From Vicugna vicugna (Eukaryota): a DNA stretch of 64,000 nt. Shown piece after piece: positions 22,603 through 63,004 of this stretch. Location of the stretch: positions 7,455,779 to 7,519,778 of the forward strand of contig MU058198.1 in the NCBI GenBank assembly GCA_013265495.1, in the 5' to 3' direction. The position numbers and the translations under genes are program-made. The notes below the pieces were generated by a model. That model had not been told where the DNA came from. It searched no databases and worked only from the letters and a program-made list of their open reading frames with translations. Position 1 is the first letter of the stretch, and each line of letters starts with the position of its first letter.

Positions 22603-25364
<2,762 letters not shown>

Positions 25365-37477: not shown

Positions 37478-39629
37478 AAAATATACCTTTTTGTTGATTG
37501 AAAAAAAAAAAAACTAGCCTCTTAATGCAGTTAAAAACCATGAAACACTATTTTTAACCTAACAGACTTTCAAATATAAATGGTTTGATTATGTACTACG
37601 TGCAGAAATAGATACTCTCAAACATTATTGGTAAGAGTTACATCTGCATGCACTGCCTCTTTGGAAGAAGGAAAATTTGGCTACACTGAAGAAAATGCCC
37701 ACACTCTTTGACCCAACAATTCTATTTCTAGATCCTACAGGCTTGGTGACACGTGGACACAAAGATGTATGCACAATCCTATGCATTGAAATATTGTTTT
37801 TATAGCAAAAGACTACAAATAACCTACAGGTCCACCAATAGGGGAGCTGATTAAATAAATTATGGTGTAGCCATATAATGGACTACTCAGCTGCTGTGAA
37901 AAAAGTGACATAGCTATGTACAAACTGACACGAAACATTCTGAGGAAAACCAAGTATCCACAATGTGCTTTCATTTTTGTGTTTTTCTAAAAGGAGATGC
38001 TTGCATATGCATAAACTGTCCCTAGAAAGATACATAAGAAACTGGTAACATGCTCACCTCGGGAGATGATGATAAAGGATGAGGCAGGAGGGTGGCTTGC
38101 TTTGCACTTTTACCTTTTTATACTATTTGAATTTTTTTTCAAAATATGAAAAGAAGTGAAAAAGAAAAATGTAAAAGAAAGCTTGGGAAACATCGACCCT
38201 CTATTGTACGGACATGGTTTTCCTTCCTGGAGAAAGTGCGGATGATCTTTGAACCACCGTGGCCTCACACTCCTCTTCGTGCCTTGGGTACCTTAAGTGA
38301 GACGCTGGATGCCTTGTTCTGATTAGAGTCCTGACACTAAACCACTAACTTGTGGAGTGATCCCGGGAAAGCTTTCTCAGTGTTAAGGCACAGAAATGAC
38401 AAGAAGAACAATGTCTGACCCTCTCCAAGCTTAAACCAGGAAGAGGGAGCCACATGGCCAAAGACATGGGGGCGGGGAGAGATTTCGTGCCCACCAACTC
38501 TAGTCCTTCATCTCCCATCATCCCTCACCCCTTTTACTCACAGCTTCAAGGCCCACCCTCCACAGGCTGCTCTCTTGCATGACTAACTAGTTGCTAAATC
38601 CCCAGGGAATGACAGGAAGAAAGGACAGCCACCCACATTCTCCAAGCTTCAGCAACTCTAAGGACCTTTAATAGTACTAAGCACTGGAAACTGCCCAGAG
38701 GGACCCTGAAGAGTCAGAACTGGAAGAAATAGCCAGTAAGGCTGGCCTCTGAGGTTTCCACTGGGTGTGTGAAAGGTTGGGTTGGATGGTAATTGTTTTT
38801 GCACATAAAAACTTTTTAGTTTATCCTTAAAGCATATACTCAATGCCTTTCTCTCTTTGGATGTCTGCAATTTGCTTTTTTTCAAGGTCACAAGATCCTT
38901 TTCTTTAAGCCAGGATTGTGTCCATTCTGGGGCAGCACCTTTCATTATTGACTTTTATGCTGTTGGAGGAATTAGGTGATTTTGCACAGCCTCCTCAGCT
39001 CTGGACCAACTAGAAATCCACGTCTCTGACATCACTATGGGTTTTGATGCTTTAGTCTGGCATGCCCAGAAAAAGTTTTTAAAATCAGAGATGCAGTGTG
39101 GAGGAGAAGAATCAGGCGCCCTGGAATCAGAGGGCCTTGAGTTCAAATCAGACTTGGACTCAGTTACATAAAATGGGAAGAAGAATAATACCCCCTTCAC
39201 AGAATCGCCTTACCGCCATGGAGCTAAGGTCTGTAAGGAACCTAGGAAGAAGGCCCTCAATAAATAGCAGCTCTTACTATCATCTGTATCATGTTCCTTA
39301 TTCTCATGTCACAAAACTGACCCTCTACTAATAGCCCTTTTTCAAAAAGGTAGCAGTAAAATAATAATAGGAGGAGGAAGAAGAAGGGGAAGGACAAGGA
39401 GGAGGAGGAGGAGAAGAAGAAGTAGCGTTTATTGAGCAATTACTACGTGTCACACTCTTCTAAGTGTTGACATGTATTAATTCCTTGAATCCTTACAGCA
39501 AGCCTTTAAGCTAGACATGGTTATGCTTGCGGATAGGAAAGCCCAGGCTCAGAGAGGTGAGATAACTGACCTTAGCTGAGCTGGGATAGAAACCCAGGCG
39601 GCGGGGCTCTGCTCTCCTGATCTAGGCAC

Positions 39630-40200
39630 CAGAACCATCAAAACGTCCGCCAGAGCGAACACCAGACCCCTCCGCCTTTCTCGGGGAGCAAGTGAACCAA
39701 TTCCTCCCAAGGCCGAGTTCGCCTGCCGGGGCCGAAGGGGTTATTCCCACTGAGACGCCGGCGCCCCGGGCTCCTAGAGCGGCCGCGCTGGGGGCGGGAG
39801 GAAAATGCGCTTCCGGCGGGTGTCGGGACTCGGGAATCCGACGGACTGGCTCGGCGCTGGGGCGCTCGGGCCCCGCCTCGGCCTGGGCCTCCCGGCGTGG
39901 AGGATGTGCCGGGGACCCGCGGAGGGGCAGGGCTCCGCGAAGGGCCTCCCTGGCCCGTGGGCTCCAGAAAGCGGGGGCTGGGAGCTGGGGAGCGGAGGGC
40001 CGGGCCGCGCAGACCAGGGCCCCCGCGGGGGGTGCGGGGAGGGGCGCCTGTGAACTTGGCCGCCCGGGAGGCTTCTGGTCTCGCCCCAGCGGGCTGGTCC
40101 GGGGAGGCGAGAGGCGGCGGCCGTTTCTCCTGGAAGGGCCAGCCGCCCGGTCCCTCCCCGAGACCTCGAACCTTCCCGAGCCCGGGGTAAGAAAGCGCTC
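39630..40200 (-). pseudogene. CpG-rich decayed C2H2 zinc-finger exon (relic 2)
   Basis: Minus fragments AGARPEASRAAKF, AHGPGRPFA, GSAFSSRP...RRLSGNNPF, WCSLWRTF resemble HTGE(K/R)P(Y/F)xCxxCGKxF units; no intact finger. Confidence 0.45.
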
Positions 40201-43200
40201 GCTCGTTCCTCCCCCCTCCCAAGTACTGGCCCGTCCGCCTCCTTAATCCCCGCAACCGCCCCGAGAAGCAGGTGGTATCACTCCAACTTTGTAGACGACT
40301 TATTTATAAGGTCAGTTTATAAACGAGCTTGTCCCGGACTCTCAGTCGGCCAGGAGCAGAGCCAGGACCGTGGCGCGCTGGTTAGGACCAGGGGCTCATC
40401 ACCCGGTCACGGTTGGAGGGACGCCTCCAGCATCAGGCTAACTTCTCTAAACTCAGCAGGCCTAAAAACCAACCAGGTTGGCATTTCGTTTTCTGGCAAG
40501 AGAGCTGGTTCATTCTAAGTAAAGTTGGAACCCCAGTTACCTTTTCTATTGCCGTTCTCCTCTGCTTTCCTCATCTTACCATCTTTTAGTCTTTTCTTCC
40601 TTTCTTTCTCCAACCTGTCTTTCCACTCCCACTGCCACCGTCTTTTTTTTTTTTTTTTTGCCCCTTTTTTTTTTGCAAACCTGAGTAAAAAAAAAAATGC
40701 CACTTTTATTGTGGCAAACCTGAGTTAATTGCAGTAACCTTCAAACCTGACTGCTTCCCAAGTTACTTCACATGCCACACCTCGTCACTTTACTCCACAG
40801 GTCCCCAGACCCTGGCATCCAGCCACTCCCCTGTTCAAAGAACCTTTTTAGTCTAAATAACTAAAGCTGTTTAGAGGCTCAAGTTGAACCTCTAGAGCAT
40901 GACCATTCAAGGCCATTTGAAACTTCACTTTAGCCCAGCTTTCTAACCTGATCTCTCTTGGTTCCCTAAATAGAGGTTCTGGACTGATAGCTACAATTGG
41001 AAAATGTGTTCCAACTGGTAGGCACTTTCTTTTTAAAATTCAAATTGCTATTTACTTTCACAGTGGAAGATAACATTTTGTTAAAAAAAAACAACCCAGA
41101 TTTCTGGTTTTTGATTCATCAATAGAGCTGGAAACAGATGGCCCAGGTTCTTGCATCTAGCAACTGGTTTGAACTGAGCGGTGTCTGCCCCCTTTTAGAC
41201 AAGGCTGCTTCCTAGTCCACCTTAGTCCTGTCCACTCCCAGATCCTCCCTGTCTCTGAGTCTGAGGGTCAGCTCTTGTGCATGCACTAATGTTTTTCCTA
41301 GAATAGAGAAGCAGGCTTTTGGTTCCTGGGTCTCCATCAAAAGTGCCCAAATGGAAAGGAAACCCAGAGGGACATGTGCGTAGATACAACAGAGGGGAAG
41401 CTCCCAGCCTCCTTCACCCATTTCCTTTTCTTTCTTGGACCCCATTTCCATTTGAATTTCCCACTCAGGCCCTACAGGAACCCTCACATATGGCCAGATT
41501 AATGCCTCACAGCCTCTCAAATGAACCCGAGGACCGTATCTTTGCACTATCTTCTCTAGTGAGTAAATTCTACTCAGCTATGTCCATAGCTAGTCTCCTA
41601 GTCTGTGAAACCTTTCCTGACGACCGTCATCCAACCAACTCCGTCTGTCTCATCAGCATTTCTGGAGGCCAGGCGCTGGGTTAGACAGGTATGACCCAAC
41701 CACCGTCATGTTTCCCTCCTCTGGATTTCTATAGCTGTGCCTGAGTCAATGTCCTAGAAAACATCTTGCACATGGTAGGCAATCAATAACGATCAACTGG
41801 TAAATGGCCCAGTCACACATGTCTTGTTCCTCTAGTAGGACTATAGTATATTTGAGGGCAGGGTCTAAGTTGTATCTGTCTTTGCACTGCCCTAGCAACC
41901 GTGACAATGCCTGGCACATAGAAGACGCGTGGTAATGGCTAAGGAAATATATTCCAGACCAGCAATAAATACCGAGTTTCAATCCTGTCCCATGGCTGGA
42001 AGCAGCAGCCCCCCAACACCACCCCCCAGCCCCTGTGGCACAGAGGAGTGGAGGGGGAGCCCCAGGGAAGAGAGAGGGGAGGCTTACTCAGTCCTGAAAG
42101 CCAGAAGCACCTCTTGGACCCTCAACCTGGAGGCTCTGCTCAGGATTCAGCCAAAGCTACATCTAGGACAGAGCTGTATCTATGTGACCTTGTGAGCAAA
42201 ACCCAACCTGATTCTGATTCTGAATTCCAAGCTCTAGAATAACAACAATGGTTATTGTGTACCGAGGTGCTCTCTGAGCCAAGCACTGCCCGGTGCTTCA
42301 CACCCATGGCCTTCCAGCCTCACCAGCGCCGTGGAGTCAATACTGTGAGTATATTCTCTTTACAGACAGGCAAAAGCTCTAATGCCTGAGTAACTCGCTG
42401 AAGGCCACAGAGTAACAGGCTGAGCCAGGAGCTAAGTCCACGTGGGCTGATTCCAGGGCTCCTGAGTTTAGCCCTGTGCTCATTCCAAATATCTGAGGGT
42501 CTACTTATTACCAGAGAACTGCACACTTAAAAATGGTTAAGATAGTAAATTTTATGTTATGTGTATTTTAACTCAATTTTTTAAAGTGAAAAAAAATAGT
42601 AGGCTAAAGGAGGATTTGGCTGAACTCAGGGACTTGGTCGTCAGCTTTATTTGGGTTCTGGATTATATCATTTTCTCTCACATCCTTCTTTAACTCTCTA
42701 CCTAAGGAATAAAAACATATATCTTCAGAACCAGTAAACTCTTTAAAAGCCCCAAGAGAAAACTTCAGATTAAAAAAAAAATCAGACTAACAATGTAGCT
42801 TCAAACTCTTGAATAACAAGCCTGTATTCACAGGAGGAAGTCACAAGGGGGAGAGGTAGCTTTGCAAAGAAAGAGCCAAGAGGGGACGCTATCATGGACC
42901 GAACACCTACTGTGTGCCAGGGATTGACAGGCGCTTTCGTATTTGATCTCACTGCGTCCTTACAAATATGAAGGTATTATCATCCCATTGTGTGGGAGAG
43001 GGAAGTGAAGTTTTGAAATGTTACGTAATTTTGCAAACGTTAAACTGATACTGAGGGCTGGAGCTTAGGTCAGAAACCAATTCTGGTAGTCAGAAAGGTG
43101 TCTGGCATTCATTTCTTCTGTGTCTCTGGATAGAATGATCCAGTCAAGGAAACTAACTAGTCCCTCACTGCCCAAACATTCCAGATTTCTCTCTCCTTGT

Positions 43201-45539
43201 ACTCCTGAGTTTTTTCAGATCTGTTACGTTTACAAAAGAGTCTTTTAAGACTTTCCCTCTTCATTACAGAAGTGCCCCGCACACAGTAGGTTCATTCCTT
43301 TATTCATTCTGTTAATGTGTATGAATGTTTGCTCTGGGCTCTTCTGGGCATTATAGATGTGGCTATGAACAACACAGATAAAAAAGAAATGAAAAAATAA
43401 AAATTGCTGCCCTCCCAGAGGTTACATTCTAAGGAAGACAGATAATGAACAAAATCACAAAGTGGGGAAGGGGGCTGGAAGTGTTGGGGTCAGGGAAGGT
43501 AGTGAAGTTTTGGATCAGGAGGCAGGGGGCAGGGGACTTCTCTGAGAAGATAAACTTTTATGTAAAAGACTGACAGGAAGTAGATGTGTAACAGCTGCCC
43601 GTCTGCTGCTCCCTCCAAGAACTCTGTAAAGAAGATCATCTAGATGGAGGAGAGAGACTCTAACACTATCTGCCATCCTTAAAGTCTTCCAGGATGGGGG
43701 GAGGGGGATCACAAAAAGGGAAGTTGATTTTCCTTCTCAACATTCCTTTTTGTTCTGATTTTGCCCTAGACCGTTTCTCACTACTCCAATCTCCTCCAAG
43801 ACTCACCTCTATTCTATCTTGTCTATCCTTCCCTTCTTTATCACAATTTCATCCAGGGTGCCCAAGAAATGAGGGGGCACCTGAGGCAGGTGGGCAGGGG
43901 AACTATCATGCTTCCTACCATTCCTTGGAGCCCCGGCAGGTTGTGGAGGGGTGGCGGGAGCAGGAGGTGGGCAACACTGGGAGATTCAGGAAACATCTGC
44001 AGGGGCAGATGGCCCAGAACAGTGGCCCAGATCTAAGAGTAAGAGGATTAAACACACAGAACCCAGGGAAGAAACAAAGACACATGTTGGTTTGTTTTGG
44101 TTTTCGCTATGTCTCTCTTTTTCAGTATCTCTTTGGTTATAATAGCTTCACTGAGATAGAATTCACATACTGTACAGTCCACTTAAAGTGGACAATTCCG
44201 TGATTTTTAGTCTAATCAGAGAGTTGTGCAGCCATCACCATGATTTCAGAACATTTTCATCACTCCCTGAATAAACTTCATATCCATCAGGAGTCACTTC
44301 TTGTTTCCCCTCAATCACCCCCAGCCCCTCCACCTCCTGTTCCCCTCCCCAACTCTAGGTAACCACAAATGTACTTTCTGTCTCTCTAGATTTCCCTAGT
44401 CTGCCCCTTTTGTGTAAATGGCCCGTTTTGGTTTTGGTTTTAGTTGACTTTTTTCTTCTTTTTTTGGAAGGTGGGTGGGTGAACCACTGAAGAATATTAC
44501 AGAGGTAGGTTTGGAACATTAGAAGTTGAGAAGCTCTTCCAGGGAAAGGAAAAGCAGAAGAGGAAAATAACTTGCTTCAGTTTTATTTTTTATTGCTCTA
44601 TTTCTTCTTTGTAAGTCACCCCAAGTGTTGGAAGGAGACAAATCCTAAGCAAATGAAAGTGAGTACTACTACAAATTAAATCCTCTCTTTTATTTCTGTG
44701 AACAAGTTTTTTTGCCTGTTTTTATACATGTATGCCTCCTGTTTTGCCCACACTGTAAAATGTAAAGGAGCATGGAGTCAAGTCAGAAAACCTGGTTCTT
44801 CCTATTAGCAGCGTGACTCAGCTACTCTCAAAGTTCTCTCTTCAGAAATTAACAACATTGTAAATTGACTATACTTCAATTTAAAAAATTATCTCTTCTA
44901 TAAAATGCGGGGGTTAAAGAACAGAGGATTATTCCAGTCCCCTCTTCAGCGTCATCTCCTGAACTGCAGGCAATCAGCCTTTCTGGTATCTGTAAACATT
45001 CCTTTTTAATTTTTAGGCTCCATCCTAGACATTTCCTCCATTCCTGAAACTTCTGGGTACAGAAAGTAAGGAGGATGAGAAGATAGCAATGTGAATTGCT
45101 TACAAGTTGTGTAACAGGTCAAACATTTATGAAGAGCCTTTACACCTTACCTAGGCTGTTTCATAGCTAGGAAGGAACAACTGGAAGGGACCTTAGAGAA
45201 CATCTAGTCCAATCCCTTCACATCGGGACGAGGAAACAGAGCTAGAATTAGGATATAACTTTTCTAAGGCCAAACAGCAAGTGAGTGCCAGAGTCAGGGC
45301 CAGTTCTGGCTTTCCGATGCCAGATGCTTTCATTTACACTAGAGGAAGCCAAAACCCAGAGGAGCCAGAGACCTCCATGTAGAATAGAGCCTGTCAGTCG
45401 GGGCAGGCTCCTTGGAGGTCACCTAGAGTCCATTTCGTCTTTTAACAGAGGCTTAGAAGAGGTGTCGGCCCTGGATCCAGACCTCCGAACTCGCACTGCA
45501 TCCTGAATGAATGTGATTGCAAGGGTTCTTGGGGGCAGA

Positions 45540-46130
45540 GGCACCTATCCCAGCGTCGGGCCGGGGCGATTACTCGGGGCGGGGCTCAGGAGGCCCGGCC
45601 TTTAAGGTCCCTTCCTTAGGCAGGAGCCTTCTAGATCTCCTTATAGTCTGGCCGAAAGCAGCCTATAGTTAGGCGCGCTGCGCGAGTCCGGGCTGGGGTC
45701 GTGTCCCTGCAGCCACGAGCCAATCCCAGGACGCGCCTGGATAGGGGCGGGATGTCCGCTCCCCGCCCCGCCCATTTTCCCTCTCAGCTGCAGGGAAGCT
45801 GGGCGGTGACCTAGGCAACCGCCCGAGCATATTGCCCACCTGCCAAATTTGCCTCGTCCCGCCCCTCTCGGCACGACCAATCGGAAAGCGAAGTCCTTTA
45901 AGGGGCAAAAGGAAAAAAAGGACAGCGATTTTGATTGGTTGGTTGGGTGAGCCCCAGTACAATCATTGGCGTTACCCTCGGGCTGGGGATACGGACGTCG
46001 CTCAGGTTGGAACGGTGAGCCTGGGAGAGACACTTTCCAGAAGCTGAGCAGAAGAAGAGTTTTGGTGAACTGAAAATTCGGTGTTTCCAATTCAAAGCTA
46101 CTGCTGCTGTCGTAGGTGTGGGCGACTGTA
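45540..46130. promoter_or_regulatory. Orphan CpG-rich promoter (NF-Y + RFX + GC boxes)
   Basis: CCAAT 45720, 45877; ATTGG 45934, 45965; X-box-like GTGACCTAGGCAAC 45806-45819; several GGGGCGG/CCGCCCC; plus-strand donor ACG|GTGAGC at 46015. Confidence 0.65.
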
Positions 46131-48329
46131 GTGGGAGTCCAAGAACAACCGATATTGTTAGTTATACTTCTTGGTAGTTCTATCGCAAAGAATACAGACA
46201 TTTATTGTTTAAATTTAACATTTATTGAGTGCATGCCGTGTGCCAGGCACTATTTTAAGTGCTTGGGCTCAGTGAACAAAACAGATTCCTGCCTTCTTGG
46301 AGCTTGTGTTCTAACAAGGGGAGACCATGTATTACGTGATGTGTTAGAAAATGGGAGAAGGCAATGGAAACAAAAAATAGAGCAAGATTAGAGAGAGAGC
46401 AGGTGGCATCATTAAATAGGTGGCCAGGTTAAACACCAGTGCGAAAGTGGTATCTGAACAAATCACTGAAGGAGGCTAGAAGGTTAGGCAATGGACTATT
46501 TGGGAGAGCACGCCAGACAAGCGGGAACAGCTGACTGGTGTTACTGAAAAACAGCGAGAAGAGTGTGGCTGGAGCGTGTGAGTGAAGGGAGAACGGTGAG
46601 AAACGTTTGGGGAGAGAGGGAGTGCATATCTTACCGGGTCTTGTATGCTTGGCTTTTACTCTGAAACAGGGAGCCGTGGCAGGGTTTTTAGCAGAAGAGT
46701 GACATCATTTGACTTATATTTAAAATAACCCTTCTGGCTGCTGTGAAGAGACAGGGATAGAAGCAGGGAGGTCTGCTAAAAGGTAATTGCAATAATGTAT
46801 ATTTGGAGATAAGGGTAGTTTGGACCAGGGTGGTGGTGATGGAAGTCAGATTCTGGATATATTTTGAAGGCAGAGCCCACAGAATTTCTCACAAGATGGG
46901 ACATGGGAAATGAGGTAAAGGCAGAAATTAAGAATCACTAAGGATTTCTGCCTGAACAACTGAAAAAGTTGCCATCAATTGACATAAAAAAGGCTGGGGG
47001 TGGAGCAGGCTTGGAGTTGGGGGAAAACCAATATTTACAGGTGGAGTTTTTCAGTCCGAAGCAGACATGTGACCAGAACACATAATGAGGTTTGTTAACT
47101 TAGTCAAGGGTCCAGAAAGCTTCCTTTCACCTGTTAAGGGTGAAGCGTTACCCGGGTAATTCTCCAGTGAGTGATGAGGTCTTATCAGAATCACTTAGAA
47201 AATCTTTTCAGTCTAAACCACAGAGGCAATCTTTACTCCCCTGAATCTTGCTTATGGGGTGGGGGGTGGGGTGGTTGGGAGCAGTGCTATATGCAGTCAT
47301 TCCAGCAAGGAAGACTGAGGCTGATAAGACAGAGGGAGGGAATCTCCTCTCTAGTAAAGGGCTCATCTTGTGTAACAACTACTTCCCCCAGGTTGCAATT
47401 CTGCCATCAAGTGACAGGACCAGAGAGAAGCATCTTGTCCAGCTTCTAGACTTTTAATCACATTTTTATTTGAAAATAATATGGCAATGACATTAACAAG
47501 AGGCTTCTGGTTAAACGTGGTGGTCTACAGGCACTTTATTTATCTGACTTTTCTTGACCCTCCTTTAAAATGAAAGTAAAGGAATTTTCAAAGGTTTAAG
47601 TATACAAGAAAAAGAGAACTAGAACAGAGATGAGAGCAGATAAGAGATACAGTATTCTTTAAAACTTAAAAGCAAAGAACCCTTTCTGGTTAACATGGCA
47701 GGCTATTCACAGCAATCTACTCTCTGATAATAAAAATATGGAATAAAATAAAACAATAATAACAATAATGATAATTTAAAAAAAAAACTTCTTAAAAGTA
47801 CTGAAGAGCAAAGAAGGAATTTCCAGACCAAAATTTAGGTGAAAGTGTGAACCCAGAGAGGAACCTGAACACTGAAACTGCCTTTATCCTGAAAGCATTT
47901 GCCAAACCAGGTGAAACTGAGCAGGCTTCATAGAACAGAAATCCAAGCCCTGGGTTTGCCCAGTGGTTAAGAAAAGATGCCCCCGCTGTGATTGAACAGG
48001 TGTAAGCCCGGAGTAACCTGGCCCAGGCTCCTTGCCCGAGGGGATTGCAAAGTAGTTTCCTTGATGCTGAGCAAAGGAGGGGAGGAAACTATTTCAGAGA
48101 AGTTGTGATGACAAACCAGCCCTCGGGTGGATATGTAGCTCCAAATCACCTCATTTATGTGCTCAAAAACAAAAACATCAAGCTATAAATTTAAAGCAGC
48201 TATAGATTGGCTGTGTTTAGGTACTAGCAGAAGGAAATACAAAATCCCATCAGATGACAAAGCAAACTTGAATCAAATAGAACTTTCAGAAATTAAAAAT
48301 ATGGTAACTGAAATAAAAAAACTCAACAG

Positions 48330-58300: not shown

Positions 58301-60729
58301 CAGTAGAGTTTTCACAGAAGGCAAGAGAGGAGGCCACTTTAGGCACGAAATCCCATACATCTGTGTTGCCTTCTTCCTTATTCAAGCTCAGCATCTGGGA
58401 CTCGGGGAGCTGAGGAAGCCTGGCGGAGGCTAAGGTCTTGGACTCTCTGAATCCTGACTCCACAACATCTAGGCTGTGCGATCTCAAGTGATGGACTTAG
58501 CTTTCCCAGACTCCAAGCCCTCATCTGCAGAATGGGAGTAGTGCTAGCATTTACTTCATGGGGCTGCTGTCAGGATTACACAAGATCATCTTTGGAAAGT
58601 CCTTTGATCCATGATTGGTCCACAGTCTAGGAGTGAATGAACATTATAAGTGCGTACACAGTGGGAGCAGGATGCACTGCCGGCTAATAGGATTGCTTCT
58701 TAAGTTCAGCCAATTATAGGGCTTCAGACAATAGTCAAATAGCCCCCTCACCACTTTCTATTACATGCCCCCTTCTCCTGATTCGATCTCTATTAAACAA
58801 ACCTATAGTGGGCAGGCTCTGTTTAATATTGTCCTTTCTCCAAAGCCACCTCCTGAAAATTGGCTTTCCCCCAAGTATGCCCCAAGTCAGATGATACTGA
58901 AGCTTGCCTACCTAACTGCATCTCAACCCTGTTTTCCAGGTAACCGTGGTGACGCTGCCTCCTCAACACAGCTACCTTCTGTGGATATAGGTAGGTATCC
59001 TCAGGCTCCTTACTTGGAGATACCACTGATGCTCGCCAGTAGCTTCTGACCATCTAACCTCCAGAAGAAAGAGAAGTGTGTGGATGACCATCTCCCAGCT
59101 TAGAAAGCTCTTCCACAGTATAACCTCCCTTTCATCCTCACAACTGCCCTGTGAGGTAGATATAGCAGATAATAACTACACTGGTCCACACGTATCAGGC
59201 ATTCACGATGGACCATGCTCTGTGTTCAGCACTTTCATAGGTGATCTCATTTAAACTCACCAAAATCCTATGAAATGGGCTCAGGCTTTCCATTTTACAG
59301 AAGAGAAAAATGGGGGCTCAGAGGGGTTAGACTTTGCCCCAGATCAAAGAGGTAGTAAGTAATAAATTCAGACCTCAGACTGACTCCAAAGCCACACTTT
59401 TAACCCTTCTTCAATATTGCCTCACAAAGCAAGTACATTTTTCCTCAGGTTATCATTCTGTCCTTTAAATTGAAGCCCAGAGAGGTAAAGTGACTTGCCC
59501 AAGGTCTCACAACCAGGAACTGGCCGAGCTGGAGTCCGTAATTGGATCTTCTGGCTCTGAGGCTCTTGAGACCATGAGGCTTCAGTGACTGGGTCTGACA
59601 ATACACTAGACAATTATTTCCGCAGCAGGTTTGCCGGGCCAACCCTGCTCAGCTCAGAACAATAATTCTCTGACAGTTTTCAGGAAATTTCTGTTTTTCT
59701 GAATCCCAAGAACCATCAGTCAAGAAATCGGGGAGAGAGGAAAAAGGATTGTAATTCTCCTGTGAGAGTTAATGCTTAACAATAAACAACCAGGCATTCC
59801 TGGTTTGAAGGAATCACTGATGTCAAGTAGAAAGCATGAGAAGGAAATGCTGACACATGGAGTCCAAGGTTAAGGTAGGCCTTTCTGGAACCTGGGATAG
59901 GCGCACATAGGAGAGAAGTGGTCATAATCTGATTAGTCTCTTTTGTAGCTGTTGCCATATTAGAAACATATTCATGGCCCTCCCTGCTGTTAACAGTGAG
60001 CCATTCTAACAAGTTAAAATAAATATTAATCTGTTTACATGTATATCTTATCCTATGACTGATGTTCCAAGAAATAAAAAGTTTTAGAAACAAGTCCTTC
60101 GATTGGCAATTTCAACACATGATTCTATGTAGTGCAGTTAATTTTGTTGAAGATTTAAACATTTTGTGATCTGAATACTACCCAATAATGTTCTCTGGTA
60201 TTTTCTCATTTCTGAATATTTGCTGTAGCCTACAGTTCTTTGTAACTACTACTACATATGTATTTCTTATTTATTAAAAAAAATAGAAAGTTATGAAAAA
60301 TACAGAATACCATGATTTCAGGAATTCCCAAGAGTTCCAATCTTTGAATCCCCAACTGTAGATTAATAACTGTTGGGAATTTAGAACTGGATGAAATTCC
60401 TAAGCAATTCAGTGGGATGGCAAACTGTGGAGAGGCCATCTTCCTTGGCCTCCAGGAAGGCTTCAAACAGGAGCTGGTCCTGGAGCAGAGCTTGGCTGGC
60501 CGACATCCCGCTAAAGGCAGAGGTCTGCAGTGTCACTTCAGGGAGCCAGGGGCTGAGCCGGCAGCGTTGGCCCTGGCATGGAATTTCTACGATGTCTCAA
60601 GTTTCTTCTCAATGGTTGGTGCAAATGTTCATTTTCATTTCAGGGGGGATCTGCTTGCTTTAGTATAAAAAGTGTTTCATACAATTATCACGGAAAAATG
60701 GATTGCTCTTCATTCGTGTACCAGCGGGC

Positions 60730-60950
60730 GGGCTGTGGAGTCAGGCAGGCAGACCTGGGTCTGAATGCTGATTCTGCCACATACTGGCTGTGTGACCTTG
60801 GGCTGGTCCCTTAACCTCTCTGAGACAGTTTTTCCTTCTGTAAAATGCTGATAATGAGAACACCAATGGCACAGAGATGCTGTGAAGACTGAATGAATCA
60901 TATAAATCACAAAGCCTGGCACAGAGTAAGCCCTCCACAAGTGGGAGACG
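60730..60950 (+). mobile_element. MIR SINE (one of many MIR/L2 remnants in the window)
   Basis: MIR core CTGTGTGACCTTGGGC...TTAACCTCTCTGAG...CTGTAAAATG and 3' part GCCTGGCACAGAGTAAG. Confidence 0.8.
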
Positions 60951-61715
60951 TGATGATTTCCTAGCACGACAGGCCCAGCAGTGGAGTGGGCAAGCACGAG
61001 CTTGCTTGCAGCCCTTGGAACCCCTCAGAGGGTCATTCGCCCCGGGCCTTCTCCAGCTGGGTCTGCTGGGGCGGCTCAGGGCTGTGCCACACGCTTCGGG
61101 TGCCCCCTCACCAGCCCGGGCCGCCTTCCCGGTTCCCACGCAGGCCCGCGGCGAGGCGGGCGCCAGGGTGGAAACGCTTCCCGCCCCCGTGGGCTCCCGG
61201 GGGAACTGGCGAGGCTGGCACCCTCAGGAAGCTCTTGCTGCAGGTCCTCCGGCGATCGACGGAACCCACCCGCGGGCCTAGCATCCGTGGGCCTGCGGGG
61301 AGGCGTTAGGTGGCGGGTGGGGTCGGGGTGGTGGGCGTGTGGCGCAGGGTCTCCGCGCAGGCGTGGCCCCCCCGGGCCTCCGCGCGAGGCTGCTGGAGGC
61401 CCGGCGCCGACTGCGCACTCCGAGGCCTCTGGCTGCGACGCGTCCTCAGGCGTCGGATGTGGTCCGATTGTGCCCGAAGCCCTCCCCATTCTTGGGGGTG
61501 CCGTTGAGCCCGCTCTGCGCGAGAGTCGGTGGCGAGCTAGCTGGGTGCTGGGACCTTAGGTTCGGGGCAGGCTGGGGCCGCTCGCCCGCGATGTTCCCGC
61601 GGCGGCTCTGGAGCTGGGAAGCCCTTTGCGCCCTCAGGGGCACGGGTGGGTGGCTGGCTGGATCTTGGGGCGGCCAAGGGAAGCCTAAGGGGCTCGCCTT
61701 CCCTGGGGAGCCGGC

Positions 61716-61916
61716 TCACCTCCCCTTTCCCTGGGGGATCGTCCGGGGAGCCCTCGGGGTCTTGCTTCCTCCGCCGGGAGCTCTGGGGTCCGGCGGCGCC
61801 GCCGAACTGGGCCGGGCGTGGGTGCGGAGGCCCCTCCTGGGAAGGAGCCGCCTGAGGGGCTCTGTTTTCAGGCCTTTCTCGTGGAGGGCTCTCCTTGTCA
61901 TCCTCACTCCCGAATC
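61716..61916 (-). CDS. BCL7C: Distal alternative last coding exon of BCL7C (BAF complex subunit), 66 aa + stop; upstream exons lie outside the window
   Basis: Acceptor TTCCTCCCCGCAG|GAT at 61916; peptide DSGVRMTRRALHEKGLKTEPLRRLLPRRGLRTHARPSS...RAPRTIPQGKGR* matches the recalled C-terminus of the long human BCL7C isoform; synteny RNF40-ZNF629-BCL7C; AATAAA on minus at 60275-60270. Confidence 0.78.
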   Translation of the reverse strand, partial: DSGVRMTRRALHEKGLKTEPLRRLLPRRGLRTHARPSSAAPPDPRAPGGGSKTPRAPRTIPQGKGR

Positions 61917-63004
61917 CTGCGGGGAGGAAAGAAGGATCTGTAGCGTATTTTCTTCTCCTCAGGCACATTAAGACTAGGAGGACCCTGCCTGGGGAGTCCT
62001 AAATGGGACAACTTGGTACAAAGTCTTTACCAACGACCAAGTGCGGTATTTCCGACAGCAGGCAGAGCTTGAGGCTGGGTCCCTTGGGAGCTCAGTGTCT
62101 GAAATTTGACAGAGCCGGGCAGCTCTACAGTTACTTGCAGTGTGATTTGAGGCAACTTACATAACTTCTTACAGTTTCAGTTCGTTCAGCTGTAAGGTGG
62201 GGGGAATAGTAGGGGAGCCACCGACCATCAAGAAACAGGGGGGCGGGGGGGGCACAGCAGCCTTATGTTTAGTTGGAAAGACCAGTATAAACCTGTACCT
62301 TACAGAAACCTTTTTCCAATTCTGTCACTGCCAAGGGTGGTCCAGGCCCCCTCTACTAACTCCATGTATAACTCTAGTGCCGAGTGTTGGTATCATATTA
62401 TTTACCATTAAAATAACCAGGAGTCCTAGGAGGGTAGCTGATTCCATTTCTTGAAGCAAGAAAAATCAGGATGGGTCTACAAGCATCCTGCTGAGGTATT
62501 GAGCACCCCCCCCCGAAATACAACAATTGATATGCTTAAGGGAAATGTCTGGGAAAGGCTGTGAGACCATAAGCTACCCAAAAGTGGAGTTAATAATGTA
62601 AAGAAAAAGTAGTTTTACTAAGAATAGATACATATGATATTGATGATTTTTATAGAGTGTTAATATATGGATATTTTGTTTCTTCTATTCTTCATCTATT
62701 TATAAGGCATAACTATGAACTTGTTTCTGTCTGTGCAAGGAGGAAGGATTAGACCTAAGGGAACTGAGTCCAGTGACCCTGGAAAAGCAACGTTACCATT
62801 ACTGGACAGCACTGATGAATACATATAGTAACCAGGTAAGAAACTGCAACACTTGTTCTGAAAGGACAATGTACCCATCTGTCCTGATGAGAACTAATTT
62901 AAACATACTTACTACCTCACCTCCTAAGAGATGACACATGGAGGAGCTTTAACAAACACTGATCAACAGTCCCCATCAAAAAGATCCCTAGATTTTATAA
63001 GGGA

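Follow-up and report, generated by a model that had tools for sequence, protein, structure and literature searches.

The window analysed here, a 64,000-nucleotide stretch of a 2.0-Gb mammalian assembly, carries ZNF629 on its minus strand; the distal last exon of BCL7C shares that strand and lies 37 kb upstream of ZNF629. Exons 1–5 of BCL7C were found in 80 kb of flanking DNA, outside the window. The donor of exon 5 is in phase 0 (ELLEAE, then GT) and stands 32.4 kb from position 61916. The proximal last exon, 0.55 kb past exon 5, encodes a short tail of 41 amino acids and has its own AATAAA. Since proximal and distal terminal exons are both found in the genome, BCL7C has two alternative last exons. 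The last exon of ZNF629 begins at 25136 and is entered in phase 1; we take ZNF629 and ZNF768 to be C2H2 genes of the KRAB-less kind in this chromosomal cluster, with the name ZNF629 as given in the preliminary description of this DNA. The features of the distal exon, and of the gene used for comparison, are as follows.

61917–61945, minus strand: AG splice acceptor of the distal BCL7C exon with its polypyrimidine tract, aligned with the ZNF629 acceptor.
61716–61916, minus strand: protein-coding segment of the distal exon (66-residue tail and its TGA stop), joined in phase 0 to the exon-5 donor.
61884–61916, minus strand: 33-nt exon start, in register with the last-exon start of ZNF629 and, more weakly, ZNF768.
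61540–61914, minus strand: phase-1 frame, open for 125 codons, a spacer of ~90 codons leading into the first candidate finger relic (same-frame mammalian ORFs).
60250–61715, minus strand: presumed 3' UTR of the long isoform, ~1.46 kb, its 5' half CpG-island-like.
60270–60275, minus strand: AATAAA poly(A) signal, the sole AATAAA or ATTAAA from 61716 to 59000.
22603–25136, minus strand: ZNF629 last exon with 19 fingers, the comparison gene, 37 kb downstream of the distal exon.

Read in frame 0 from 61916 on the minus strand, the exon gives the 66-residue peptide DSGVRMTRR...PQGKGR, with a stop at 61718–61716. With two bases skipped, the phase-1 reading from the same position is FGSEDDKESPPRERPE and stays open for 125 codons, to 61540. 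Both translations are as the preliminary description had written them, and the exon end that it placed near 60250 agrees with the poly(A) signal at 60275–60270. Beyond the open stretch the exon is disabled in what would be its old zinc-finger frame, with four stops in 305 codons and frameshifting indels. Words of the stretch are present at 0.45–0.67 in seven RNA runs from three studies, as word counts and not as junction reads.

Our first question was whether the frame-0 peptide belongs to a known protein, as had been claimed. It matched 15 of 376 candidates, all of them the long tail of BCL7C, at 70–91% identity, and it is the annotated tail of the long isoform. The same tail is found in cluster listings, including human RefSeq NP_001273455.1 (242 aa), mouse NP_001334581.1 and many more. 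Across 44 distinct tail rows the identity to the window sequence is 71–94%, and 22 of the 66 columns are invariant among 43 tails and the window sequence. Carriers include rodents, primates, glires, laurasiatherians and afrotherians, that is, Boreoeutheria and Afrotheria; no xenarthran sequence was among the listed rows. The long tail was seen in none of 21 marsupial and monotreme BCL7C proteins (nine further members of the koala cluster were left out), 20 of which end in the short tail and one, a possum model, in an unrelated tail; this absence is judged from protein collections and is weaker than absence from genomes. Because the PPLKRI motif of the short tail is present in BCL7C proteins of lizard and lungfish, the short tail is the ancestral one. 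The distal-exon tail was thus probably fixed after the marsupial split and before the split of Boreoeutheria and Afrotheria. In public models the exon-5 donor is also joined to other captured ends, in human X1 (with a PF17906 match), sheep, possum and elephant, and among these only the 66-residue end is seen across placentals. Such variety fits a BCL7C donor that samples downstream acceptors.

The preliminary description had further proposed that the exon, entered in phase 1, starts like the last exon of ZNF629. The first 33 nt of the two exons are identical at 22 positions, ungapped and both directly after AG. Of the 22,265 AG-anchored 33-mers in 144 kb, no other non-self one matches as well (the next best has 19), and 2 of 200,000 shuffles reached 22, for a comparison picked after the fact. 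On the intron side, 22 of 40 positions are identical to the ZNF629 acceptor, in part from pyrimidine composition. The last exon of ZNF768 has a phase-1 start of the same type that aligns more poorly (score 10 vs. 35 for ZNF629); the paralogue comparison consisted of these two genes, with ZNF689, ZNF785, ZNF688, ZNF764, ZNF747, ZNF48 and ZNF771 left out. Same-frame translations of other mammals have 3–7 of 16 residues in common with the ZNF629 start. A consensus pattern made from both exon starts was circular and was excluded from the evidence. The similarity to ZNF629 fades past ~45 nt, beyond which the spacer is not alignable; without anchoring, local alignment over the initial 420 nt gave no significant score (34, vs. 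a shuffle mean of 26 and a maximum of 42 in 300). A direct duplicate of ZNF629 was rejected, as colinear likeness through the spacer was not found. We consider it probable that the acceptor at 61917–61945 was handed down from a zinc-finger gene. Since the point where the similarity sets in coincides with an intron acceptor, a tandem copy of an intron-containing gene is a likelier source than a retrocopy.

The phase-1 frame runs uninterrupted from the acceptor into the first of a series of degenerate C2H2 repeats, which lie in the following order.

61576–61650, minus strand: candidate finger relic 1 with a frameshifted GERP-type linker (finger profile, alignment, linker pattern).
61507–61575, minus strand: candidate finger relic 2, with short deletions (finger profile and alignment).
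61425–61506, minus strand: candidate finger relic 3 (GEGFGHN; a 1-nt deletion is followed by SDHIRRLRTRRSQRP, read in the zinc-finger frame).
61282–61424, minus strand: candidate finger relic 4, with a 29-nt deletion, and relic 5, both aligning weakly, 11.1 bits alone.
61169–61281, minus strand: candidate finger relic 6, from CSKSF to GKRF, in exact finger register and without indels, 21.5 bits.
61030–61110, minus strand: possible extra relic (EACGTA), 13.2 bits alone, at the level of the nulls and not separable from chance.

Using a looping 84-nt profile built from the ZNF629 fingers, we found ~3 periods at 61639–61405 with 28.5 bits, while nulls had a mean of 14±2 and a maximum of 22.8, and none of 600 Markov sequences scored as high. 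An independent profile from the ten fingers of ZNF768 gave 24.6 bits (nulls 13.8±1.9, 0 of 150 as high; opposite strand 16.2). A second block, 61242–61169, is one finger in exact register, so GKRF is the TGEKPF-type linker that closes the CSKSF finger. In a scan with window-wide background, 3 of 554 other scan windows scored as high; this background gave composition artefacts, and a local one was adopted. A minus-strand rerun with the window-wide background was swamped by ZNF629 and was superseded by the local one. Against the local background of 118 kb, the top minus-strand peak fell in the distal exon for all three profiles (29.3, 24.3 and 32.4 bits; reversed controls at most 20.4). In the combined model, the ends of the three highest minus-strand peaks are at 61405, 61230 and 60928 (32.4, 22.9 and 20.0 bits; reversed controls at most 19.8), the last peak being at control level. 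A HOXD70 alignment joined 61650–61175 to six consecutive ZNF629 fingers with 277 of 437 positions identical (63%), at a score of 3192 compared with 1852±245 for nulls, none of 100 of which scored as high. The alignment with ZNF768 was weaker (2172, with 3 of 100 nulls as high), a difference that does not name the parent because ZNF629 has more fingers to match. Relic 1 was within the top three finger-start scores in 6 of 10 translations, and a linker pattern built on it had 11 matches vs. 0 in the control, one of them the first linker of ZNF629. At the position of relic 1, one mammalian same-frame record has CPGGGKSL.

The four finger relics named in the preliminary description, GEGFGHN (61487–61467), CSKSF (61242–61228), GKRF (61182–61171) and EACGTA (61097–61080), all on the minus strand, are present in the sequence and are jointly significant with the repeating 84-nt model, although not singly. 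GEGFGHN and CSKSF fall within candidate relics 3 and 6; GKRF proved to be a linker, and EACGTA is unsupported on its own. The strongest finger block, 61650–61500, lies upstream of these relics and was missing from that list.

Could the finger likeness arise by chance, or by picking motifs after the fact, in a distal exon drawn from ordinary GC-rich DNA such as an orphan CpG island? Single-finger nhmmer searches did not find the relics significant one by one (E 0.79, 10 and 17), and five translations matched no Pfam family. Such failures are expected after old decay, and together with the missing intact relative (see below) they are also what an origin by chance predicts. Furthermore, the 18 CpG-island controls of the HOXD70 alignment reach up to 2639, an unexplained and unrelated plus-strand stretch at 62051–62144 attains 26.6, 18.0 and 25.2 bits (25–27 with two of the three models), and a looser SENEE-like acceptor pattern is common in itself (204 matches vs. 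147 in the control), so unspecific that its use was confined to locating ZNF768. Against this, an in-register acceptor and a periodic finger array coincide in one exon with the right strand, order and spacing, and two separately trained finger models agree. We regard a chance origin as very unlikely. Tandem decayed 84-nt C2H2 repeats with TGEKP-type linkers, a phase-1 acceptor at the homologous last-exon position, and disabling stops and frameshifts are what marks a zinc-finger pseudogene, and all of these were found. The acceptor match and the ~six finger periods support the earlier proposal that BCL7C took the acceptor of such a pseudogene, and from them we judge that the exon of the long tail is, with good confidence, the former last exon of a now-dead zinc-finger gene. 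On the two points where the preliminary description was most exposed, the peptide matches the annotated isoform, and the similarity of the exon to zinc-finger last exons is significant.

No living source was found. A protein search with the old frame gave no intact zinc-finger orthologue among 1578 candidates. HMMER with the old frame against 1.84 billion representatives returned 12 proteins, all of them readings of the orthologous exon in that frame, and none of the 12 (11 aligned; red deer and lemming among them) has intact fingers. When the genome was searched with the distal exon as DNA and as protein, the exon matched itself alone (best other E 0.16, 13 matches). A ZNF629- or ZNF768-like 5' exon was not found in the BCL7C intron, where just one 24-nt match occurred; decay or deletion could account for absent 5' exons or promoter. 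Nor was a KRAB relic found in 74 kb with a profile built from 14 KRAB loci, for which the best E was 0.19 (0.5 in the reversed control). An identity as a KRAB zinc-finger gene was rejected, no upstream KRAB-A exon having been found; a genome-wide KRAB search, in which 150 of 406 candidates were scored and none lay on this contig, has no bearing on the intron.

We then asked which of the two frames is under selection, using protein translations as a stand-in for codons. The first codon position of the old zinc-finger frame is the wobble position of the BCL7C frame. Across 11 old-frame mammalian translations, 54 distinct single-base changes fell at position 1 and 19 at position 2, with an opportunity of 174:195 (p = 2.9e-6), a skew derived from protein translations against one reference and not from DNA on a tree. 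In the BCL7C-frame tails the changes at positions 1 and 2 were 37:33 (p = 0.47, one mis-cut tail record included), with no excess at the old wobble. Substitutions thus concentrate at the wobble of the new frame, the pattern expected of exaptation, and codon conservation falls in the BCL7C frame; a comparison of the frames was what the preliminary description had called for. It is highly likely, on these translated sequences, that the selected frame is that of BCL7C, not the zinc-finger frame, and that the tail is a selected protein segment.

These counts bear on the idea that a small intronic gene still enters the exon in phase 1 and makes a finger-less acidic, proline-rich protein of 100–150 residues. 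The red-deer NCBI models XP_043770712/3 do join upstream exons to the old frame, there is an orphan CpG island 24 kb upstream, and the old frame is open for 94–189 codons in 10 of 11 records (125 here). Stops are found at ~1 of 15 stop-making sites, where ~5 would be expected, while silent changes to T occur at 10 of 29 harmless sites. However, the records were gathered for being open frames, and such sampling would by itself yield the deficit of stops. The frame ends differently in every record and stops at codon 63 in one, no clear counterpart of the deer 5' exons was seen in this DNA, and the old-frame identity of 55–80% is below that of the BCL7C frame, with changes that pile up at the BCL7C wobble. 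Continued coding in both frames therefore seems improbable.

In the model that we favor, an intron-containing C2H2 gene of the ZNF629 and ZNF768 type would once have stood between BCL7C and ZNF629 on the same strand. What survives of it would be the last exon, with its acceptor and spacer, six or more decayed fingers and a poly(A) signal. Transcripts that skip the proximal last exon would splice the phase-0 donor of exon 5 into the phase-1 acceptor, and because of this difference in phase the old spacer would be read one base out of its former frame. Translation would yield 66 residues and halt before the fingers, and the finger region would have turned into 3' UTR and then decayed. We put the probability of this whole explanation, the capture by BCL7C of a dead same-strand zinc-finger last exon read out of frame, at roughly 0.8. 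The same origin allows another order of events, in which the zinc-finger gene was still alive when read-through from BCL7C took over the exon; its later death would then have been aided by competition for the acceptor or by selection acting on the new frame. In a living gene the acceptor, the poly(A) signal and a spacer free of stops would all be maintained, and the phase-1 reading of the spacer still continues without a stop into finger 1. On the other side, protein searches found no lineage with both the long tail and intact fingers, and no 5' exons were found. We consider capture from a living gene possible but rather unlikely; this order is compatible with the zinc-finger origin, and the data here do not separate the two.

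What might the tail do? The short tail is acidic, with a net charge of −6, while the long tail, as the preliminary description's Arg-rich label anticipated, is strongly basic, with a net charge of +13 (13 Arg, 4 Lys). The isoform switch removes PPLKRIC, the ancient motif of the short tail, and the invariant cores of the long tail are RRLLP.RGL and PQGKGR. In the predicted structure of the long isoform the tail has a pLDDT of 46–61 and no fold except a 4-residue helix, so it is predicted to be disordered. BCL7C isoform 1 is UniProt Q8WUZ0-2, the form that, in the passages available from one study, served as recombinant BCL7C (PMC11983133). In those passages the long BCL7C binds nucleosomes like BCL7A and BCL7B (220 vs. 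220 and 170 nM), and residues 1–100 of BCL7A suffice for nucleosome binding (PMC11983133). Because the affinity equals that of BCL7A and BCL7B and BCL7A 1–100 suffices, the tail is unlikely to be a major element of nucleosome affinity, and the N-terminal arginine anchor would stay the chief nucleosome contact. BCL7C is a BAF member in excerpts that are silent on isoforms (PMC3307773). Localisation, linker-DNA or RNA contact and partner binding are possible roles, and we tentatively suggest that the Arg-rich tail is a putative basic localisation or nucleic-acid-contact segment that may tune BCL7C in BAF. A more speculative and rather doubtful proposal is that frameshifted capture gave placentals a selected isoform of a BAF subunit of their own, whose charge-reversing tail lends BAF a switchable property such as localisation or contact with DNA or RNA; in its boldest form, the old frame would still be translated from an intronic promoter.

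The origin proposed here would give a new conserved segment on a cancer-linked remodelling subunit a dated and traceable source, a dead neighbouring transcription-factor gene read in the wrong frame, which is neither a transposon nor a retrocopy. It argues for a functional 242-aa BCL7C isoform over splicing noise, and experiments with one or the other isoform compare oppositely charged tails. It also suggests a general screen, as zinc-finger clusters abound in dead last exons with good acceptors, which earlier retrocopy surveys omitted.

The dead exon resembles those of ZNF629 and ZNF768 in being a phase-1 last exon that starts G..SE.E/D.E and continues with a spacer and tandem GC-rich fingers, and in strand and neighbourhood. 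Unlike them, it has a spacer that is unalignable past 45 nt, broken fingers and no 5' exon that could be found. At CDKN2A (INK4a/ARF), one acceptor can be entered in either of two phases, so that unrelated peptides arise, and both frames are alive. The acceptor of the distal BCL7C exon would likewise have been entered in two phases, but there the old frame appears dead. Retrocopies also give host genes out-of-frame terminal exons, and the sections available from a survey of them describe C10ORF26/BCAP29 and RPL32/RPS29 (Baertsch et al., 2008; PMC2584115). As in those cases, BCL7C would have gained an alternative 3' exon derived from a dead copy of a gene, out of frame and with the remainder as 3' UTR; in contrast to them, the donor would be an intron-containing neighbour with its own acceptor, and the 66-residue tail is placental-wide and selected. 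By its account in those sections, the survey excluded zinc-finger genes and covered young primate events. In CSB-PGBD3, too, in the parts available from its description, a chromatin-remodelling gene has trapped a conserved alternative 3' terminal exon, used after exon 5 (Newman et al., 2008; PMC2268245). There, a transposon was joined in frame and its domain kept, whereas at BCL7C the old product would have been lost and a new frame taken. BCL7C isoform 1 (NP_001273455.1), with the same protein and exon as here, is annotated in human, mouse and many placentals. In the open-access literature, which most subscription papers and database notes lie outside, we found no account of the zinc-finger origin, the placental range or the selection pattern of the tail. 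The isoform annotation and the exaptation of out-of-frame terminal exons are thus already known, and the probable zinc-finger origin of the BCL7C tail would be the new element.

In public gene models, the exon-5 donor of BCL7C is spliced to several unrelated downstream ends (P0096, P0097, P0104, P0111 and P0171). One of these is that of the human X1 model, which has a PF17906 match, and another is the sheep tail, which resembles a Tigger transposase. The possum model joins a tail specific to possum to the same donor, and in the elephant model a cassette is inserted ahead of the long tail. Beside BCL7C in the Vicugna vicugna genome lie CTF1 and a cardiotrophin-2 coding sequence that appears to be open.

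Features in the window and in stretches of DNA outside it (L004, L005, L006 and L020)
Window 25270–25364, minus strand: short ZNF629 coding exon, with a counterpart in L020
Window 39551–40450: orphan CpG island
Window 45401–46150: orphan CpG island
L004, ~1900–2650: orphan CpG island
L005, ~30.3 kb past the window end: BCL7C exon-5 donor
L005–L006, ~38.8–42.8 kb past the window end: CTF1 and cardiotrophin-2 coding sequence

The old zinc-finger frame of the distal BCL7C exon (window 61540–61914, minus strand) is annotated in red-deer NCBI models (P0076 and P0088) as a separate proline-rich gene, whose two upstream exons differ from each other. A finger-profile peak on the plus strand at 62051–62144, which scores 26.6 bits against the ZNF629 profile and 18.0 against that of ZNF768, is probably due to chance; it lies in a sequence resembling a MIR-type repeat.

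Three orphan CpG islands lie between ZNF629 and BCL7C exon 5. No finger or KRAB signal was found in them; they carry ETS, SP1 or NFY-like motifs. The intronic orphan island could be the promoter of the dead zinc-finger gene, or that of a lncRNA.

ZNF629 and ZNF768 are built alike: in both, a short coding exon of the form ME...W..., which may be a worn KRAB-B exon, ends in phase 1 and is followed by a last exon that starts with an acidic SE.EEE stretch.
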